A DNA stretch of 64,000 bases, taken from Leptospiraceae bacterium (GTDB taxonomy: Bacteria > Spirochaetota > Leptospiria > Leptospirales > Leptospiraceae). Shown here one piece after another: positions 56,729 through 62,642 of the stretch. The DNA lies in the NCBI GenBank assembly GCA_016711485.1, contig JADJSX010000013.1:150889-214888 (forward strand), written 5' to 3'. The first letter of the stretch is position 1; the number at the start of each line of letters is the position of its first letter. A program made the position numbers and the translations under genes. Under the pieces are notes generated by a model. The model was not told where the DNA came from. It worked only from the letters and a program-made list of their open reading frames with translations, and did no database searches.

Positions 56729-59515
56729 ATGCAATACACAAAAGAACAATTAACCGCAATTAATACCATCAATAAAAATCTTCAGATCATTGCTTGTGCA
56801 GGATCAGGAAAGACTCAGGTCATATCTAAAAGAATCGTGAATATATTAAAAGATGAAAGTGTTTCTCCAAGTAATGTAGTGGCGTTTACTTACACGGAAA
56901 AAGCCGCAGTTGAATTGAAAAATAGGATTCTGCGCATTGCCGGGGAAGAAGGGCTAAAGAGAATGGGAATGGCAGAGTTATTTGTTGGAACAATTCACGC
57001 TTGGTGCTTAAAAATTTTACAAGAATATATTTTAGAATTTCAGAAGTATGGAGTGCTTGATGAAGTTAAATTAAAACTTCTATTGGATAGATATTATTAT
57101 ACTAATTCTGATTTTGGACCAAAGACGCATTCTGGTATGAAAGATTTAGATCTTAAAATATTCACTGACACAAAAATCTACATTCAGCTAATGACGATTT
57201 TGCGCGAATCAGAAATTGAACATACACAAGTGCCAGATCGAATCAAAGACGCGAAAATTAAATATGAGACTCTTCTGAAAAAATATTGTTATTTTGATTT
57301 TACAATGGTATTGAGCGAACTTTTAAATCAACTTGAAATCAATCCAGAGTTAAATGCTAAACTTAAAGAAAAGGTAAAGTATCTTGTCGTTGATGAATAC
57401 CAAGATGTAAACCCAGTCCAAGAAAAAATAATCTATCATCTCTATTCTCTTGGGGCTAATATATGCGTAGTCGGCGATGATGACCAGACTATCTATCAGT
57501 GGAGAGGAAGTGATTTACAAAACATTTTAAATTTTGACACCAGATATAAAAATGTAGAAGTAATCAAGTTGGAGGATAATCATAGAAGCACTCCTGCGAT
57601 AGTCGCAACTGCCTTAAAGACAATCCAACATAATGTAGAAAGAAAAGCAAAAGAAATGAAAGCCGCAGGAAGCTTGAAATATGAACAAGGTGATGTGCTA
57701 TTTAACTCCTTTCAAAATCCAGACGAAGAAGTAGATTTTATTGTAGAACAGATTCATAAACTTAGAGGTGTTGAGTTCAAAGATAAAAATCACAATAGAG
57801 GGTTAGATTACGGAGATTTCTGTATTCTTGTTCGTGCATGGAGTAAGGCGACACAGATAAAAGATAAATTGGAAGCAACTAATATCCCTTTTATTGTCAG
57901 TGGGGTAAGTCAATTATTCGAAACTACAGAAGTGAAAGCAGCAAAATCTATTTTCGAATTTATGGCAGAAAAAATAGACCAAGGAGTTGTGAGAGATTTA
58001 TGGGACGCAGCACAAATAAAAATAACAGAGGCTAATTTCGAGAAAGCTATTCAATATTTAGTAGCCCATCGTCCAGTGAAAAATCAATTCTTTGATACTT
58101 TTTGCCTGCAAGATATTTTTCAAGAATTTATGGAAATTGCGGGAGTCACAGAGGAATCTATTTCAGTATTGAATACAGAGCCACAAAACCAATTCTATTT
58201 TTCGGAAATTAAATTTTATAATCTTGGTCAATTTAGTCAAGTGATAGATGACTTTGAAACTATCTATTATAACAGTGCTCCAATTAGTAAGCTAAATAAT
58301 TTTTTGAACTTTTTGAACTATGCGGCAAAAGACTATTATCCAGAGGGATGGCTTAATAATACATTTAAAACTCCGAATGCAGTTACAATTATGACGGTTC
58401 ACCAATCAAAGGGTTTAGAGTATCCTGTAATATTCATACCGGGAATGAATCGAAATTACTTTCCTTCCAAGGGTCAGGGGGGAGCTTCTGTATGGTCAAA
58501 ATTCAAAGATGAGATTCCACTATTTGTAAAAAATCACGAAAGATACAAAGGTGATAAAGATAATTATGAGGACGAACGAAGACTTTTTTATGTTGCTCTT
58601 ACCCGCTCTCAAAAGTATCTCTACATCACAAGAGCACCGGTACCAGAAAATAATCTATTTCAAAAGGAATCTATTTTTTGTAAAGAAGTAAGTCATGCTG
58701 ATTATATTTACACTGATTTGAATCCAGTTTATTCTAATCGTCCCCAATTAACTCCTGAGGCTAAAAAAGAAACTGCTAATATATTTTTGAATTTTAGTTT
58801 GCTAAAGGATTATTTTGAATGCCCCTATCGTTTTAAGTTATCTAGCATGTATGGGTTTCAATCTCCTCTGAGTATGCGGTTAGGTCATGGTAAAGCTATT
58901 CATAACGCGCTCATGGATATACATAGACAATTCCTAGATGGTAAAGATGTTTCTCTTAATCAAATAGATAGTTTATTGGATACTCATTATTATCTCCCTT
59001 ATGCAAATCCTGATGGCGAAATATTTAAAGATATGCGCTCTAGTGCAAAAGAGTCTGTGGAAATATATTACAAGGAAAATAAAGATTCGTTTAAAGACAT
59101 TGAGTTTGCGGAAAAGGATATTGAGATTCCTCTTGGGGATGGAATTTTAGTGAATGGTAGAATTGATTTAGTAAAGAAAAAGAATTTAGATGGAACAATC
59201 GAAACTACGATTATAGATTTTAAATCTGCTAAAGATGCGCAAACGTTCGCAATTTCAATGGATCAACTCATGCTCTATGCGATGGGATACAAAGAATTGA
59301 CCGGAGAAAAAGCTGACTTCCTTTCCGTGTATAATCTGGATGAAAATCGACCGCATAAACAAAAATTAGAAGAGACTCATTTGGACTCAACTCGCACTAA
59401 GATCATTTCGTCTGCCAATAAAATTCGTTCAAATGAATTTACAAAAACAACCACACATTTACATTGTGAAACATGTAGATTTAAAAAGGTTTGTAGTAAG
59501 AAAAATAAAGGTTAG
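56729..59515 (+). CDS. SF1 UvrD/PcrA-type helicase fused to C-terminal RecB-family PD-(D/E)xK nuclease with Cas4/AddB-like 4-Cys cluster
   Basis: Helicase motifs I ACAGSGKTQV, II YLVVDEYQD, III VVGDDDQTIYQWRG, IV NHRSTP, V MTVHQSKGLEYPVIF, VI VALTRSQKYLYI; nuclease GRIDLV...IIDFKSAK...QLMLYAMGY (QhxxY); Cys in FECPYRF plus C-terminal HCETCRFKKVC. Confidence 0.8.
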   Translation: MQYTKEQLTAINTINKNLQIIACAGSGKTQVISKRIVNILKDESVSPSNVVAFTYTEKAAVELKNRILRIAGEEGLKRMGMAELFVGTIHAWCLKILQEYILEFQKYGVLDEVKLKLLLDRYYYTNSDFGPKTHSGMKDLDLKIFTDTKIYIQLMTILRESEIEHTQVPDRIKDAKIKYETLLKKYCYFDFTMVLSELLNQLEINPELNAKLKEKVKYLVVDEYQDVNPVQEKIIYHLYSLGANICVVGDDDQTIYQWRGSDLQNILNFDTRYKNVEVIKLEDNHRSTPAIVATALKTIQHNVERKAKEMKAAGSLKYEQGDVLFNSFQNPDEEVDFIVEQIHKLRGVEFKDKNHNRGLDYGDFCILVRAWSKATQIKDKLEATNIPFIVSGVSQLFETTEVKAAKSIFEFMAEKIDQGVVRDLWDAAQIKITEANFEKAIQYLVAHRPVKNQFFDTFCLQDIFQEFMEIAGVTEESISVLNTEPQNQFYFSEIKFYNLGQFSQVIDDFETIYYNSAPISKLNNFLNFLNYAAKDYYPEGWLNNTFKTPNAVTIMTVHQSKGLEYPVIFIPGMNRNYFPSKGQGGASVWSKFKDEIPLFVKNHERYKGDKDNYEDERRLFYVALTRSQKYLYITRAPVPENNLFQKESIFCKEVSHADYIYTDLNPVYSNRPQLTPEAKKETANIFLNFSLLKDYFECPYRFKLSSMYGFQSPLSMRLGHGKAIHNALMDIHRQFLDGKDVSLNQIDSLLDTHYYLPYANPDGEIFKDMRSSAKESVEIYYKENKDSFKDIEFAEKDIEIPLGDGILVNGRIDLVKKKNLDGTIETTIIDFKSAKDAQTFAISMDQLMLYAMGYKELTGEKADFLSVYNLDENRPHKQKLEETHLDSTRTKIISSANKIRSNEFTKTTTHLHCETCRFKKVCSKKNKG

Positions 59516-59517
59516 CA

Positions 59518-60586: not shown

Positions 60587-61775
60587 TAGGGCAAACGCAT
60601 TAAAAAAGAGACTTGTACAACTGGATGGAAAGAAAATATTGTTATGAATGAACGAACAGTTAAACATATACGAACATTTTAATGAGCTAATTGATCCGCG
60701 AATAGAGCGAGGAAGAAAGCATTTACTAGTAGATATAATATTTGTAGCAATCGTTTCCATCATAAGTGGAGCGGACGATTGGAATGAAATAGAAGAGTTT
60801 GGTAATTTGAAAATAGAATGGTTGCGGAAATTCATAAAGTTAGAGAATGGTATTCCATCGCATGATACATTTAATAGAGTCTTTTCGCTGTTAGACCCTA
60901 AAAAGTTTTCTGAGTTGGCGATGGAATTATTTAATCCGAATATCGTAGAAGGTTTAGATTTAATTTCAATAGATGGGAAAACTGAAAGACGTTCGGTCGA
61001 TAAAAAGAACAATAAATTTCCAATTCATATTGTAAGTGCGTGGTCAAGTAGAAATGGAATTTCACTTGGACAAATAAAAGTAAATGAGAAAAGTAATGAA
61101 ATTACAGCGATTCCTGAATTGCTTTCTCAGATAAAAGTGAAGAATAGCATTGTATCTATTGACGCAATGGGCTGTCAGAAAAAGATTACAGAAAAGATTA
61201 TAGAGCAAAAAGGCGATTATGCGATAGCCTTGAAGGAGAATCAACCGACAGTGTATAAAGAGGTTTTGAATTATTTTGAGCAACAATTGCTTTCTGGATT
61301 TGAAAGGGTAAATGTCGGTTATTCAATGACAGAGCAAAAAGGACATGGTCGAATTGAAAAAGAGAATACTGGCTATTATCCGATATTGATTGGATTTCTA
61401 AGAAAGACGAATGGAAGGGATTAAAAAGTGTAGGAATGGTTCGTTCCGAGCGAGAATACCAAGGAAAAAATCTATAGAGTCTCGATATTTTATTTCTAGT
61501 TTAACTAACCCTGAACTTTTTCAGAAATCTGTAAGAACTCATTGGCAAATTGAAAACTCTTGTCACTGGATTTTAGATGTCGTTTTTCGAGAAGATGATA
61601 GTCGAATTCGTGCTGGCTACGCTGCCGAAAATTTTTCCATCATCAGAAAAATTGCTCTAAATTTCTTGAAGAATGATACCACAATTAAGATTGGAGTAAA
61701 AGGAAAACGACGCGCCGCAGGATGGGATGATAAATATCGCAGTAAAATCATAGGTTTTTAAATGCGTTTGCCCTA
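60587..61775 (+). mobile_element. ISAs1-family insertion sequence inside the methyltransferase gene
   Basis: Perfect 15-bp terminal IRs tagggcaaacgcatt / aatgcgtttgcccta; flanked by 10-bp direct duplication ggtctagatg (60577-60586 and 61776-61785). Confidence 0.85.
60648..61761 (+). pseudogene. ISAs1-family transposase with two frameshifts
   Basis: N-terminus LIDPRIERGRKHLLVDIIFVAIVSIISGADDWNEIEEFG...PSHDTFNRVF and C-terminus RYFISSL...THWQIENSCHWILDVVFREDDSRIR are ISAs1 signatures; frame changes near 61380 and at the A6 run 61464-61470. Confidence 0.75.
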
Positions 61776-62642
61776 GGTCTAGATGGAAAAAATAAAGTAC
61801 CAGCCTACAAAACATTCTTATCAGAGGTAAGGCAAGGGACAACTCCTGTAACAGTTTGGACATACGATGAAGCAGGTCATAATCAATTGGCAAGACAAGA
61901 ATTAAATTCTATTATTGAAAAAAATGTCTTCGCTACGCCAAAACCGGAACGTCTAATCCAGCGAATCCTCCACATAGCCACCAACCCCGGCGACACTGTC
62001 CTAGATTGCTTCGGTGGAAGTGGCACTACCTTTGCGGTTGCCAACAAGATGGGACGCAAATGGATTGGGGTTGAGATTGGAGATCATGCGGATACTCATA
62101 TTATACCGCGAATGAAAAAAGTAATTGCTGGCGAAGACCAATCGGGAATCAGTAAAGCTGTAAACTGGAAAGGTGGGGGAAGTTTTTCTTATTTTCATTT
62201 GGGTCAGTCCATCATTAGTATCAACAAAAAAGGTGAGCCTGATTTTAATTGGAAATTAGGTAGAGCCGAATTGGAAAAGTCTCTTTTACTGACGTATGAT
62301 TTTATAGTAGAGGACACTTCGATACGCCAGCGAAAAGATGCCGGCACTCAGCGTCCGAATTCTTCCTATACAATCGGTTATAAAACTAAAAATGGAAAAC
62401 GAATTTGTGGATTAGCTTCCTTATCTGAAGATCCAACCATTTCCAATACAAAAGGAGAAATTGAAAGTCCAGGAGAGTTTATGAGTTATATGGAATTTGT
62501 TGGACTCTTAAAAAAGATTGAACCGTCCGATTTTATTTATCTTTATACAAACCGAGGCATTGAGATTTCTTCCAATGAAATCCCTGAGAACATGGAGATT
62601 GTTAAAGTTCCAACTGCTATTTTTCAAGAATTAGAAGAGTAA
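61776..62642 (+). pseudogene. Type III Mod-like methyltransferase, 3' part (motif I)
   Basis: FATPKPERLIQRIL...VLDCFGGSGTTFAVA (FxGxG AdoMet motif after DPPY = beta class); in frame with the 5' part once the IS and one TSD copy are removed (VWWGLDGKNKVPAYK). Confidence 0.8.

Follow-up and report, generated by a model that had tools for sequence, protein, structure and literature searches.

A decayed Type III-like restriction–modification cassette with a UvrD-Cas4 helicase–nuclease in a Leptospiraceae genome

Results

The window, that is, the whole 64,000-nucleotide stretch of Leptospiraceae DNA that was analysed, carries near its end an intact helicase–nuclease gene (HEL), a Mod gene split by an insertion sequence (IS), and two further ORFs, the second of which continues beyond the window (Table 1). 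HEL is preceded by gene fragments and a terminator-like hairpin, and homology with the relatives sets in exactly at the HEL start.

Table 1. Features of the locus, in window coordinates.
Feature	Position	Strand	Remarks
Upstream boundary	55451..56728		1.3 kb of gene fragments, from dnaE to HEL
IS3-type OrfA fragment	55899..56003		upstream of HEL
groEL 3' fragment	56176..56379		upstream of HEL
Terminator-like hairpin	56484..56511		upstream of HEL
HEL, 928 aa, intact	56729..59515	+	UvrD/PcrA-type SF1A helicase with C-terminal Cas4/AddB-like PD-(D/E)xK nuclease with 4 Cys ("UvrD-Cas4")
Type III Mod, 5' part	59518..60586	+	N-terminal region, DPPY motif IV, start of target-recognition region; PF01555 and PADLOC MTase_III
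Target-site duplication, left copy	60577..60586		perfect, 10 bp, GGTCTAGATG; flanks the IS
ISAs1-family IS, 1189 bp, splitting Mod	60587..61775	+	terminal inverted repeats TAGGGCAAACGCATT..., ~20 bp; DDE_Tnp_1 / DDE_Tnp_1_assoc
Transposase N-terminal ORF, 258 aa	60648..61424	+	in the IS
Transposase C-terminal ORF, 116 aa	61411..61761	+	in the IS; different frame
Target-site duplication, right copy	61776..61785		perfect, 10 bp; flanks the IS
Type III Mod, 3' part	61786..62642	+	rest of target-recognition region, FGGSG motif I, C-terminal domain
XRE-HTH + M78 (ImmA/IrrE) metallopeptidase protein, 377 aa	62699..63832	+	Pfam HTH_3 and Peptidase_M78; between Mod and Res
182-aa ORF, start only	63819..64000	+	runs past window end; partner of the HTH-M78 gene

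A sequence-only reading of this DNA had described HEL as an SF1 helicase of the UvrD/PcrA type fused to a Cas4/AddB-like nuclease with four cysteines, and this was confirmed at the same coordinates by Pfam matches (UvrD-helicase, E=4.5e-57; UvrD_C, 1.6e-45; PDDEXK_1, 2.6e-20; Cas_Cas4, weak) and by an alignment of 24 family sequences. Invariant in this alignment are the helicase residues G25, K28 and T29 of Walker A, DEYQD 222-226, Q253, R286, Q559, G562, E564, R617 and R626, and the nuclease residues D813, D830-x-K832, Q846..Y850 and Cys698, Cys913 and Cys916; Cys922 is kept in 18 of the 24 sequences. The AlphaFold model (pLDDT 82.7) has AddA of AddAB, PcrA/UvrD, RecB and AdnB as its top structural matches, and HEL thus looks, in its modelled fold, like a DNA-end processor. 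It is nevertheless not an ordinary AddA, RecB or PcrA: its NCBIfam equivalog scores are well under the cut-offs. In the relatives, the cassette sits in unrelated chromosomal neighbourhoods.

A gap of 2 bp separates the stop codon of HEL from the start of Mod, in the arrangement already noted from the sequence. Its Type III layout was likewise borne out: the motif order LIKGDNLLAL, DPPY, FGGSG is that of the beta class, the top PADLOC match of the 5' and 3' parts is MTase_III (1e-75 and 1e-48, respectively), and the top PDB sequence matches are the Type III Mod subunits 6k0w, EcoP15I 4zcf and Mbo45V 7dsu. The transposase of the intervening IS matches transpos_ISAs1 (NCBIfam, E=3.8e-75) and is itself split into two ORFs. 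As had been predicted, removal of 60587-61785, which comprises the IS and one copy of the 10-bp duplication, joins the two Mod parts in frame to an unbroken 641-aa protein.

The protein encoded after Mod is weakly RmrA-like (PADLOC RmrA, 1.6e-10), and its orthologues are found at this position in both L091/L092 and L093/L094; its 182-aa partner, for which Pfam and PADLOC searches gave no match, is kept in L091 and L093. The two genes form a module embedded between Mod and a third gene, Res, which gives the locus the order HEL, Mod, HTH-M78 with the 182-aa ORF, Res. The earlier statement that Mod has no Res downstream holds inside the window only, as Res starts about 380 bp past position 64000. 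Contig L081, which is 100% identical to window positions 61651-64000 (2350 bp) and extends 1241 bp beyond, runs on via the 182-aa ORF into an SF2 ResIII gene, and contig L087 of the same assembly contains the remaining 820 Res codons. Perfect inverted repeats of 16 bp (GAGTTGTTGCAAAATT) and a duplicated 5-bp sequence, TATTA, mark the two contig ends, and their removal yields a 1076-aa Res, equal in length to the intact orthologue in L091. Pieced together in this way from two short contigs of an assembly other than that of the window, Res in the Leptospiraceae genome appears to be interrupted as well, by a second IS. A 231.5 kb NCBI contig of a Leptospiraceae MAG is recorded with a protein in the 90%-identity cluster of the 820-aa ORF.

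HEL–Mod adjacency is conserved across phyla, which upholds the earlier view of functionally linked defence genes. HEL, Mod and Res occur together in every close relative examined (Res is present in L001-L004, L083-L086 and L088-L094), across at least six phyla and usually contiguously, as in FCPU426, Nitrospirae, Pseudotenacibaculum, Cyclobacterium, Acidithiobacillus, Winogradskyella and others. L091/L092 contain an intact five-gene orthologue, HEL-Mod-HTH/M78-185aa-Res, whose Res is 79% identical to that of the Leptospiraceae genome; HEL is 83-85% identical to its orthologues in L001 and L091 (85% to L091). The best 120 HEL matches and the best 120 Res matches have 28 same-sized contigs in common, and three Res matches that were looked up from among those without a same-sized contig in the HEL set all have HEL and Mod upstream. 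In the more distant loci L009, L012, L040 and L048, a ResIII gene follows Mod as well.

These data bear on the central proposal of the sequence-only reading, a two-gene system in which the helicase–nuclease takes the place of Res and Mod directs it to its target. The proposal drew on the fact that only HEL and Mod, 2 bp apart, are visible within the window, and it agrees with their widely conserved adjacency. However, Res is encoded downstream in the same genome (L081, L087) and in every close relative examined, it has its own conserved PD-ExK nuclease, and within the close family no locus was found with HEL and a PF01555 Mod but without a ResIII-type gene, contigs that end too early aside. 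For the Leptospiraceae locus the downstream Res leads us to reject a two-gene system, which as an explanation is scarcely credible.

The three proteins co-diverge. Pairwise-identity matrices from 11 loci correlate with r=0.93 for HEL-Res, r=0.75 for HEL-Mod and r=0.83 for Mod-Res (Mantel p<=4e-4), and in the close family the genes are co-oriented, in fixed order, with gaps of 0-30 bp or overlaps. This organization, the HEL-Res correlation that is tighter than that of Mod and Res, and the insertion of other defence cassettes between the genes without breaking up the trio, which suggests selection for keeping it, all argue against HEL being a self-sufficient defence or repair helicase–nuclease, comparable to Nhi, Hna, ZomB or mini-AddAB, that merely travels with Type III genes in defence islands. 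In favour of such independence, HEL relatives with 24-42% identity are often encoded without Mod and Res, alone or in unrelated, non-conserved contexts (beside RlmN, Pol I, a Y-family polymerase and others), as was also remarked previously (PMC5704561), and HEL is therefore able to work without both; moreover, HEL is intact here despite the broken Mod and Res, and ZomB acts without a restriction–modification (R-M) partner. On balance, we consider mere co-travel unlikely.

Discussion

The locus represents a degenerate version of an already known type of defence system and not a new one. The pairing of a helicase–nuclease with Mod had not been recognised as a described type, but UvrD-Cas4 fusions are encoded most often beside a Type III Mod with Res (Hudaiberdiev et al., 2017, BMC Evol Biol 17:232, PMC5704561). 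These proteins share with HEL the architecture of a UvrD-like SF1 helicase and a pfam12705 Cas4-like nuclease as well as the sporadic distribution in bacteria and archaea, and their loci likewise contain Mod and Res and often HTH regulators; the Leptospiraceae copy differs by its degeneration, with IS in Mod and Res, and by the HTH-M78/182-aa pair between them. The earlier interpretation is thus supported in part and fails on its central point, the replacement of Res.

As in the canonical Type III systems EcoP15I and EcoP1I (Mod2Res1), a beta-class Mod, matched in the PDB by EcoP15I Mod, is encoded upstream of a Res with an SF2 DEAH motor and a C-terminal PD-ExK nuclease. Type III Res relies on Mod for DNA recognition. 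In the Res family of the trio, the SF2 motifs ATGSGKT, DEAHH and QIIGRGVR and the nuclease motif PDF...ExK are invariant. Unlike the canonical systems, the trio includes an additional SF1 helicase–nuclease gene, and its Res proteins are very remote from characterised ones: sequence and profile searches of the PDB gave no match to EcoP15I Res, and PADLOC finds REase_III weakly (about 1e-17) or not at all, so that Type III mechanics are an assumption for this family.

A further difference is that many of these Res proteins end in a Peptidase_S24 domain, in which the Leptospiraceae copies retain the GxSM...K Ser-Lys signature. Together with the AddA/RecB-like fold of HEL and the RecB/AddB-like recombination-promoting role proposed in PMC5704561, this could point to HEL as a protector of the host that resects self-inflicted Type III breaks for RecA loading and repair, or that signals restriction alleviation, one route being that RecA* would stimulate the LexA-like S24 domain at the end of Res to cleave itself. 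The catalytic Ser motif is missing, though, from the aligned S24 region of most non-spirochaete Res proteins, and the S24 route therefore cannot be the general logic; neither Chi-like regulation nor a RecA-loading element was identifiable. Host protection is thus very improbable.

HEL resembles AddAB, RecBCD and AdnAB in that a RecB-family nuclease follows an SF1A UvrD-like motor, with AddA, RecB and AdnB as best whole-chain structural matches and the Fe-S 4-Cys signature of AddB, but it is a single chain of ~920 aa without a partner subunit gene, is well under the AddA/RecB equivalog cut-offs, and is encoded on a mobile, sporadic cassette in non-syntenic neighbourhoods. By domain types it is also like ZomB from the mobile element ICESp23FST81 of Streptococcus pneumoniae, which potently degrades dsDNA in vitro in an ATP-dependent manner (PMC9453066) and in which a UvrD-like helicase precedes Cas4-like Fe-S nuclease domains; ZomB, however, is described with two such domains and without an R-M partner. 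Accessory proteins that enhance or enable interference are known from pAgo-ACE1 (APACE1), where a Cas4-family nuclease (ACE1) co-encoded with a sequence-directed defence nuclease raises pAgo interference (PMC12094033), and from CglI/NgoAVII, where a defence endonuclease has an accessory helicase (N.CglI; PMC4267653). Both are like the trio in this respect, but their primary effectors (Argonaute; a PLD-type R protein) and accessory architectures are different.

Spirochaetota relatives carry nested cassettes, of the toxin–antitoxin (TA), CBASS or a similar kind, in between HEL, Mod and Res. Such nesting in a multi-gene defence operon is also seen with PrrC within the Type I system EcoprrI and with the embedded defence genes of a recent preprint (Payne et al., 2024, 10.1101/2024.01.29.577857), in the searched passages of which the hosts named are Hma, BREX, DISARM and Type I R-M, and Type III trios were not found in that role.

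Taken as a whole, mechanism included, the locus is probably best explained as a decayed HEL, Mod and Res cassette of a Type III-like R-M system. An experimental study of the trio was not found in the literature; from fold and context we infer that HEL processes DNA ends in the manner of AddA/RecB, as a nuclease that would degrade the DNA once Type III cleavage has taken place. In intact relatives, Mod and Res would form the Type III enzyme, with Mod recognising and methylating an asymmetric site, and the SF2 ATPase of Res would be triggered at unmethylated sites, where its PD-ExK domain would introduce a double-strand break. Acting as an SF1A motor of the AddA/RecB kind, HEL would then load onto the fresh DNA end and unwind the DNA, which its Fe-S Cas4-like nuclease would degrade, making restriction irreversible and independent of host RecBCD or AddAB. 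In the Leptospiraceae genome, the whole restriction module is dead because of the IS insertions in both Mod and Res. The earlier argument that disruption of Mod is tolerable only with a nuclease that depends on Mod or is harmless alone is moot, as the loss of Mod is tolerated because Res is interrupted as well. We propose that HEL survived because an end-dependent nuclease would be harmless without breaks, and on its own it may remain useful.

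Results

The gene upstream of the methyltransferase encodes a helicase–nuclease (HEL) whose N-terminal part matched the UvrD/REP helicase domain (PF00580, E=4.5e-57) and UvrD_C (PF13361, 1.6e-45), and whose C-terminal nuclease matched PDDEXK_1 (PF12705, 2.6e-20), weakly Cas_Cas4 (1.1e-3) in Pfam, and TIGR00372 cas4 (1.8e-8) in NCBIfam; its top PDB sequence matches were PcrA and UvrD. In a 24-member HEL family alignment, all checked residues of helicase motifs I, II, III, IV, V, and VI were invariant, as were D813, D830-x-K832, and Q846..Y850 (QhxxY) of the nuclease, and in the C...CxxCx5C set Cys698, Cys913, and Cys916 were invariant and Cys922 was found in 18/24. 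By its domains and motifs, HEL would thus belong to the family of UvrD-like SF1 helicases fused to Cas4-like nucleases (UvrD-Cas4) in the pfam12705 branch, with a putative Fe–S cluster. A search with the nuclease domain alone gave 504 clusters (50% identity) at E<=1e-10, and in full-length members, proteins of ~900-1000 aa, the domain was C-terminal.

The AlphaFold model of HEL was confident (pLDDT 82.7, pTM 0.82), and its best whole-chain structural matches were AddA of AddAB, followed by PcrA/UvrD, RecB, and AdnB. Among the matches were solved structures of RecBCD bound by gp5.9, Abc2, and GamS from phages; RecBCD is a known target that is commonly inhibited by phages. A housekeeping break-repair enzyme of the AddAB/RecBCD type was considered and rejected, as the NCBIfam equivalog scores were far below the cut-offs (addA_Gpos, 170.9 bits vs 707.65; recB, 162.4 vs 696.05; PcrA and UvrD likewise), as no partner-subunit gene is adjacent, and as the flanks are not common to relatives. 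Gabija was rejected because HEL matches GajB models (1.7e-61) via the common UvrD core only; no nuclease domain is reported for the matched PADLOC GajB profiles, and no GajA-like gene was detected among the scanned neighbours (Pfam, PADLOC). Hma and MANTIS were rejected with zero model matches.

The frame of Mod is interrupted at 60586 by a 1189-bp element with terminal inverted repeats of ~20 bp, a perfect 10-bp target duplication, and an ISAs1-family transposase (NCBIfam). Excision of 60587-61785 restores a 641-aa frame with FGGSG 3' of DPPY; the sequence-only reading had described HEL and Mod with these features, insertion and restored frame included, and was accurate in this. The motif order read from the sequence (DPPY, target-recognition region, FxGxG) is that of the beta class, the best PADLOC match was MTase_III (1.1e-75 and 1.4e-48), and the PDB matches were Type III Mod subunits (6k0w, 5e-47; EcoP15I Mod, 6e-30; Mbo45V, 4e-23), and Mod is accordingly predicted to be a Type III beta-class N6/N4 methyltransferase. 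The transposase itself is split into ORFs of 258 aa and 116 aa in different frames, and their 14-nt overlap sits in the A-rich stretch TTAAAAAG at about 61420; the split could stem from recoding or a frameshift mutation, or be a sequencing error. No second copy of the element is present within the window.

It had been proposed that HEL takes the place of Res, as no Res gene follows Mod in the window. An exact-sequence look-up with HEL returned no contig, and the downstream HTH-M78 protein (62699-63832), the last complete gene of the window, was used as the query instead. This led to contig L081, which matches window 61651-64000 at 100% identity, right IS junction included, and extends 1241 bp further. 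L081 carries a 182-aa ORF, starting at window 63819, and then a ResIII-domain gene that is 83% identical to Res of the closest relative (L001) across 248 codons and turns into unrelated sequence ~120 bp short of the contig end. With the L001 Res as query, an 820-aa protein was retrieved (P0123, 80% identity); its annotation is from a Leptospiraceae MAG, and its record places it on a 231.5-kb contig. In the assembly of L081, this protein lies on contig L087, which starts with 121 bp of foreign sequence, after which Res resumes at the exact codon where L081 stopped. The foreign ends of both contigs are perfect 16-bp inverted repeats (GAGTTGTTGCAAAATT) with a flanking 5-bp TATTA duplication, and removal of the foreign sequence results in a Res of 1076 aa, the length of the intact orthologue in another Leptospiraceae locus (L091/L092). 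Therefore, this genome does have a Res gene downstream of Mod, and a second IS, of which ~120 bp are visible at each end, interrupts it after codon ~248. The missing Res was an edge effect of the window, and a replacement of Res by HEL is refuted for this locus. A DUF1016 gene (YhcG-type, PD-(D/E)xK-like) lies downstream of Res, which suggests that the defence island continues.

The Res family combines PF04851, invariant SF2 motifs (DEAHH, QxxGRxxR), and, in the alignment, an invariant PDF...ExK motif, and Res thus has a predicted nuclease of its own. EcoP15I Res in the PDB was matched neither by sequence nor by profile; the only matches of the profile were motor segments of Type I HsdR and of UvrB, the PDB sequence search was empty, and PADLOC REase_III matched the Res proteins weakly (about 1e-17) or not at all. 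Res thus appears to have the layout of an SF2 ATPase with a C-terminal PD-(D/E)xK nuclease, yet it is remote from characterised Res proteins. Many members carry a C-terminal LexA-like Peptidase_S24 domain, in which the Leptospiraceae copies retain the GHSM...K Ser-Lys signature, and most copies from Bacteroidota and Proteobacteria have no Ser motif in the aligned region. In Spirochaetota, the domain appears catalytically intact, and our literature search found no report of a restriction subunit joined to a domain that might cleave itself. In L083, another Leptospiraceae MAG, Res is also broken, into a 223-aa ResIII ORF and a 552-aa ORF ending in S24 (together ~775 aa vs ~1070 aa expected), and Res decay may be recurrent in the Leptospiraceae lineage.

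Homologues of HEL (~905-930 aa, ~50% identity) were found in Leptospiraceae, Bacteroidota, Acidithiobacillus, and Nitrospirota, as well as in many metagenomes. Mod and Res were sought by tblastn, and neighbours were scanned with Pfam, in 80 loci taken from species-representative genomes. The HEL-Mod-Res trio was present in all loci with HEL identities of at least 48%, and also in several at 24-42% identity (L005, L006, L009, L012, L022, L025, L039, L040, L048, L061, L064, which is an archaeon, and L067), some of which have other types of Res, such as one with a TnsA-like endonuclease. Other distant relatives were solitary in unrelated contexts, and the Dcm and Vsr context, the second conserved one in the literature, was not seen near the scanned solitary 40%-identity relatives, whose neighbours were unrelated. 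Mod adjoins HEL with Res downstream in the genome of the window and in at least 15 related loci. Protein look-up added the trio of Cyclobacterium amurskyense (L084, CP012040.1) and Acidithiobacillus (L085/L086), and in L083 the order is Mod-Res-HEL. The best 120 HEL and best 120 Res matches had 28 identical contig sizes in common, and three loci picked from Res matches that share no contig size with HEL matches (L088-L090) all contained the trio. Pairwise-identity matrices of 11 loci were correlated (HEL-Res, r=0.93; HEL-Mod, 0.75; Mod-Res, 0.83; Mantel p<=4e-4), which indicates that HEL, Mod, and Res are inherited together as a unit. L091/L092 is intact in the arrangement of the window, with HEL (927 aa), Mod (683 aa), HTH-M78 (375 aa), a 185-aa ORF, and Res (1076 aa), all 65-85% identical to the proteins of the window. 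The nearest HEL relatives are ~85% identical at the protein level, and synonymous sites are probably saturated.

Relatives become homologous to the window exactly at the HEL start codon, and the dnaE flank is found in none of them; the cassette is therefore mobile and not a housekeeping neighbourhood. The 1.3-kb dnaE-HEL spacer (55451-56728) is composed of gene fragments, has a higher GC content than the cassette (0.39-0.40 vs 0.33), and looks like a scar from earlier insertions or rearrangements. A 128-aa ORF therein (56053-56439, minus strand) was rejected as a gene, being of low complexity and antisense to the groEL fragment. No tRNA or Rfam family was detected in the flanks, and hence no integration-site marker. 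As promoter-like sites (32 vs 31.8 in shuffled sequence) and terminator-like sites (7 vs 4.7) did not exceed expectation, no operon boundary can be drawn from them, except at the hairpin upstream of HEL.

Positions of features at the locus, on its downstream contigs, and in related loci
Feature	Position	Strand	Remark
Helicase-C-terminus-like fragment, short	55570-55722	-	By eye; no Pfam match
IS3-type OrfA HTH fragment, 34 codons	55899-56003	+	
groEL 3' fragment, last ~67 codons with GGM tail	56176-56379	+	
Strong terminator-like hairpin upstream of HEL	56484-56511		
HEL, 928-aa ORF	56729-59515	+	ORF map; next ORF starts 59518
Mod, PF01555 methyltransferase with LIKGDNLLAL, DPPY	starts 59518	+	ORF map, Pfam
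ISAs1-family element in Mod	60587-61775		Transposase 60648-61761
HTH-M78 and ~182-aa ORF	62699-64000; L091:5741-7412		Also in L093
Res of the source genome	from about 64380; L081:2730-3591 and L087:1-2615		Past window end
Res S24 domain	reconstructed Res residues ~930-1075 (L087)		A2 alignment columns ~1130-1290
DUF1016 gene	L087:2737-3654		
PIN-domain protein with small upstream ORF (VapBC-like); DarT, then 341-aa ORF, presumed DarG	L001:12736-13441, 15309-16980		
NTP_transf_2 and HEPN (MNT-HEPN)	L083:6842-7565		
Broken Res of L083	L083:7569-9997		
AAA_21 ATPase and 227-aa ORF; HTH-M78 and ~182-aa ORF	L093:3863-5694, 7701-9372		Two cassettes
CD-NTase and Cap15 (CBASS)	L090:3298-4660, 6509-7991		
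Small XRE-HTH gene overlapping HEL start, 93-94 aa	L084:9723-10004; L089:3198-3482		Cyclobacterium; Winogradskyella
HTH-M78 protein just 3' of HEL	L008:4213-5325		Geobacter
Sacsin/HATPase and NOV_C genes	L004:9486-13943; L005:13378-16713		Directly 3' of Res

Outside Spirochaetota, HEL, Mod, and Res are contiguous, and in Spirochaetota relatives small defence or toxin–antitoxin (TA) cassettes are nested between HEL and Mod and between Mod and Res. The cassette of the window consists of an XRE-HTH and M78 peptidase protein (Pfam), which matched the models of RosmerTA RmrA (HTH and zinc peptidase) in PADLOC at 1.6e-10 to 1e-3, and of the 182-aa partner ORF, which had no PADLOC or Pfam match. A similar HTH-M78 protein adjoins HEL in a Geobacter relative, which hints that it may be a regulator of the HEL system and not a random insert. 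The small XRE-HTH gene at the HEL start in two relatives, which has no counterpart in the window, may encode a controller of the C-protein type. In two further loci, large Sacsin/HATPase and NOV_C genes directly follow Res, that of L004 matching PADLOC TmtA (Tiamat) with E=0, and these are probably neighbouring defence systems outside the trio.

Discussion

The sequence-only reading had regarded the pairing of HEL with a Type III methyltransferase as undescribed, but UvrD-Cas4 fusions are the largest pfam12705 branch, were predicted to be ancillary in defence, and their association with Type III Mod and Res was published in 2017 (Hudaiberdiev et al. 2017, PMC5704561). The locus agrees with that description, as HEL adjoins Mod and Res lies downstream. 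The name UvrD-Cas4 was not used in any later paper found in our literature search, which also returned no experimental study of the trio. ZomB, which shares the domain types of HEL, degrades duplex DNA as a potent ATP-dependent nuclease (PMC9453066), and the Cas4-family accessory nuclease ACE1 raises pAgo interference (PMC12094033).

There is no functional Type III system here, since the ISAs1-family element disrupts Mod and the second IS disrupts Res. The locus is not a new system but a copy, inactivated by IS elements, of the published UvrD-Cas4 and Type III Mod/Res kind. An intact HEL beside a broken Mod had seemed to demand a special explanation; as Mod and Res are both dead, no autoimmunity problem has to be explained, and an end-dependent nuclease that is harmless alone is consistent with the intact HEL. 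Going by established Type III biology, Mod and Res of an intact trio would recognise and cut unmethylated DNA, and HEL, by analogy with AddAB/RecBCD, would then load onto the cut end and degrade the DNA processively, which would complete restriction without the host RecBCD. The functional link of HEL and Mod suspected from the sequence held up. HEL could also be an independent passenger gene that travels with Type III systems, but operon structure and co-divergence speak against this. That HEL is an ordinary AddA or AddB in a housekeeping neighbourhood does not agree with the sub-cut-off scores and the unshared flanks. More speculatively, HEL might serve host repair or restriction alleviation, perhaps via the S24 domain of Res.

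The accessible text of 10.1101/2024.01.29.577857 describes defence genes nested in the multi-gene systems Hma, BREX, DISARM, and Type I R-M. The general embedding phenomenon is thus already published, and we found no description of cassettes embedded in Type III trios. It is conceivable, although we consider it improbable, that the Spirochaetota trio is an integrated two-layer system, with swappable abortive-infection or TA cassettes at both intergenic junctions and the LexA-like S24 domain on Res. In such a system, HEL would resect restriction breaks, and the ssDNA/RecA signal from this, or inhibition of the R-M complex by a phage, would switch Res by self-cleavage, release the embedded toxin, or both. 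If true, the trio would parallel, among Type III systems, the guard arrangement of PrrC-EcoprrI.

As a dead copy of a cassette known since 2017, this locus itself has little significance. The broader value lies in a trio that is widespread, has seen no experimental work, and contains a Res that the Type III models of PADLOC match weakly or not, and the nested-cassette pattern in Spirochaetota is a further source of interest. The intact loci of Cyclobacterium amurskyense (L084, CP012040.1), Acidithiobacillus (L085), and the five-gene Leptospiraceae cassette (L091) are ready starting material.
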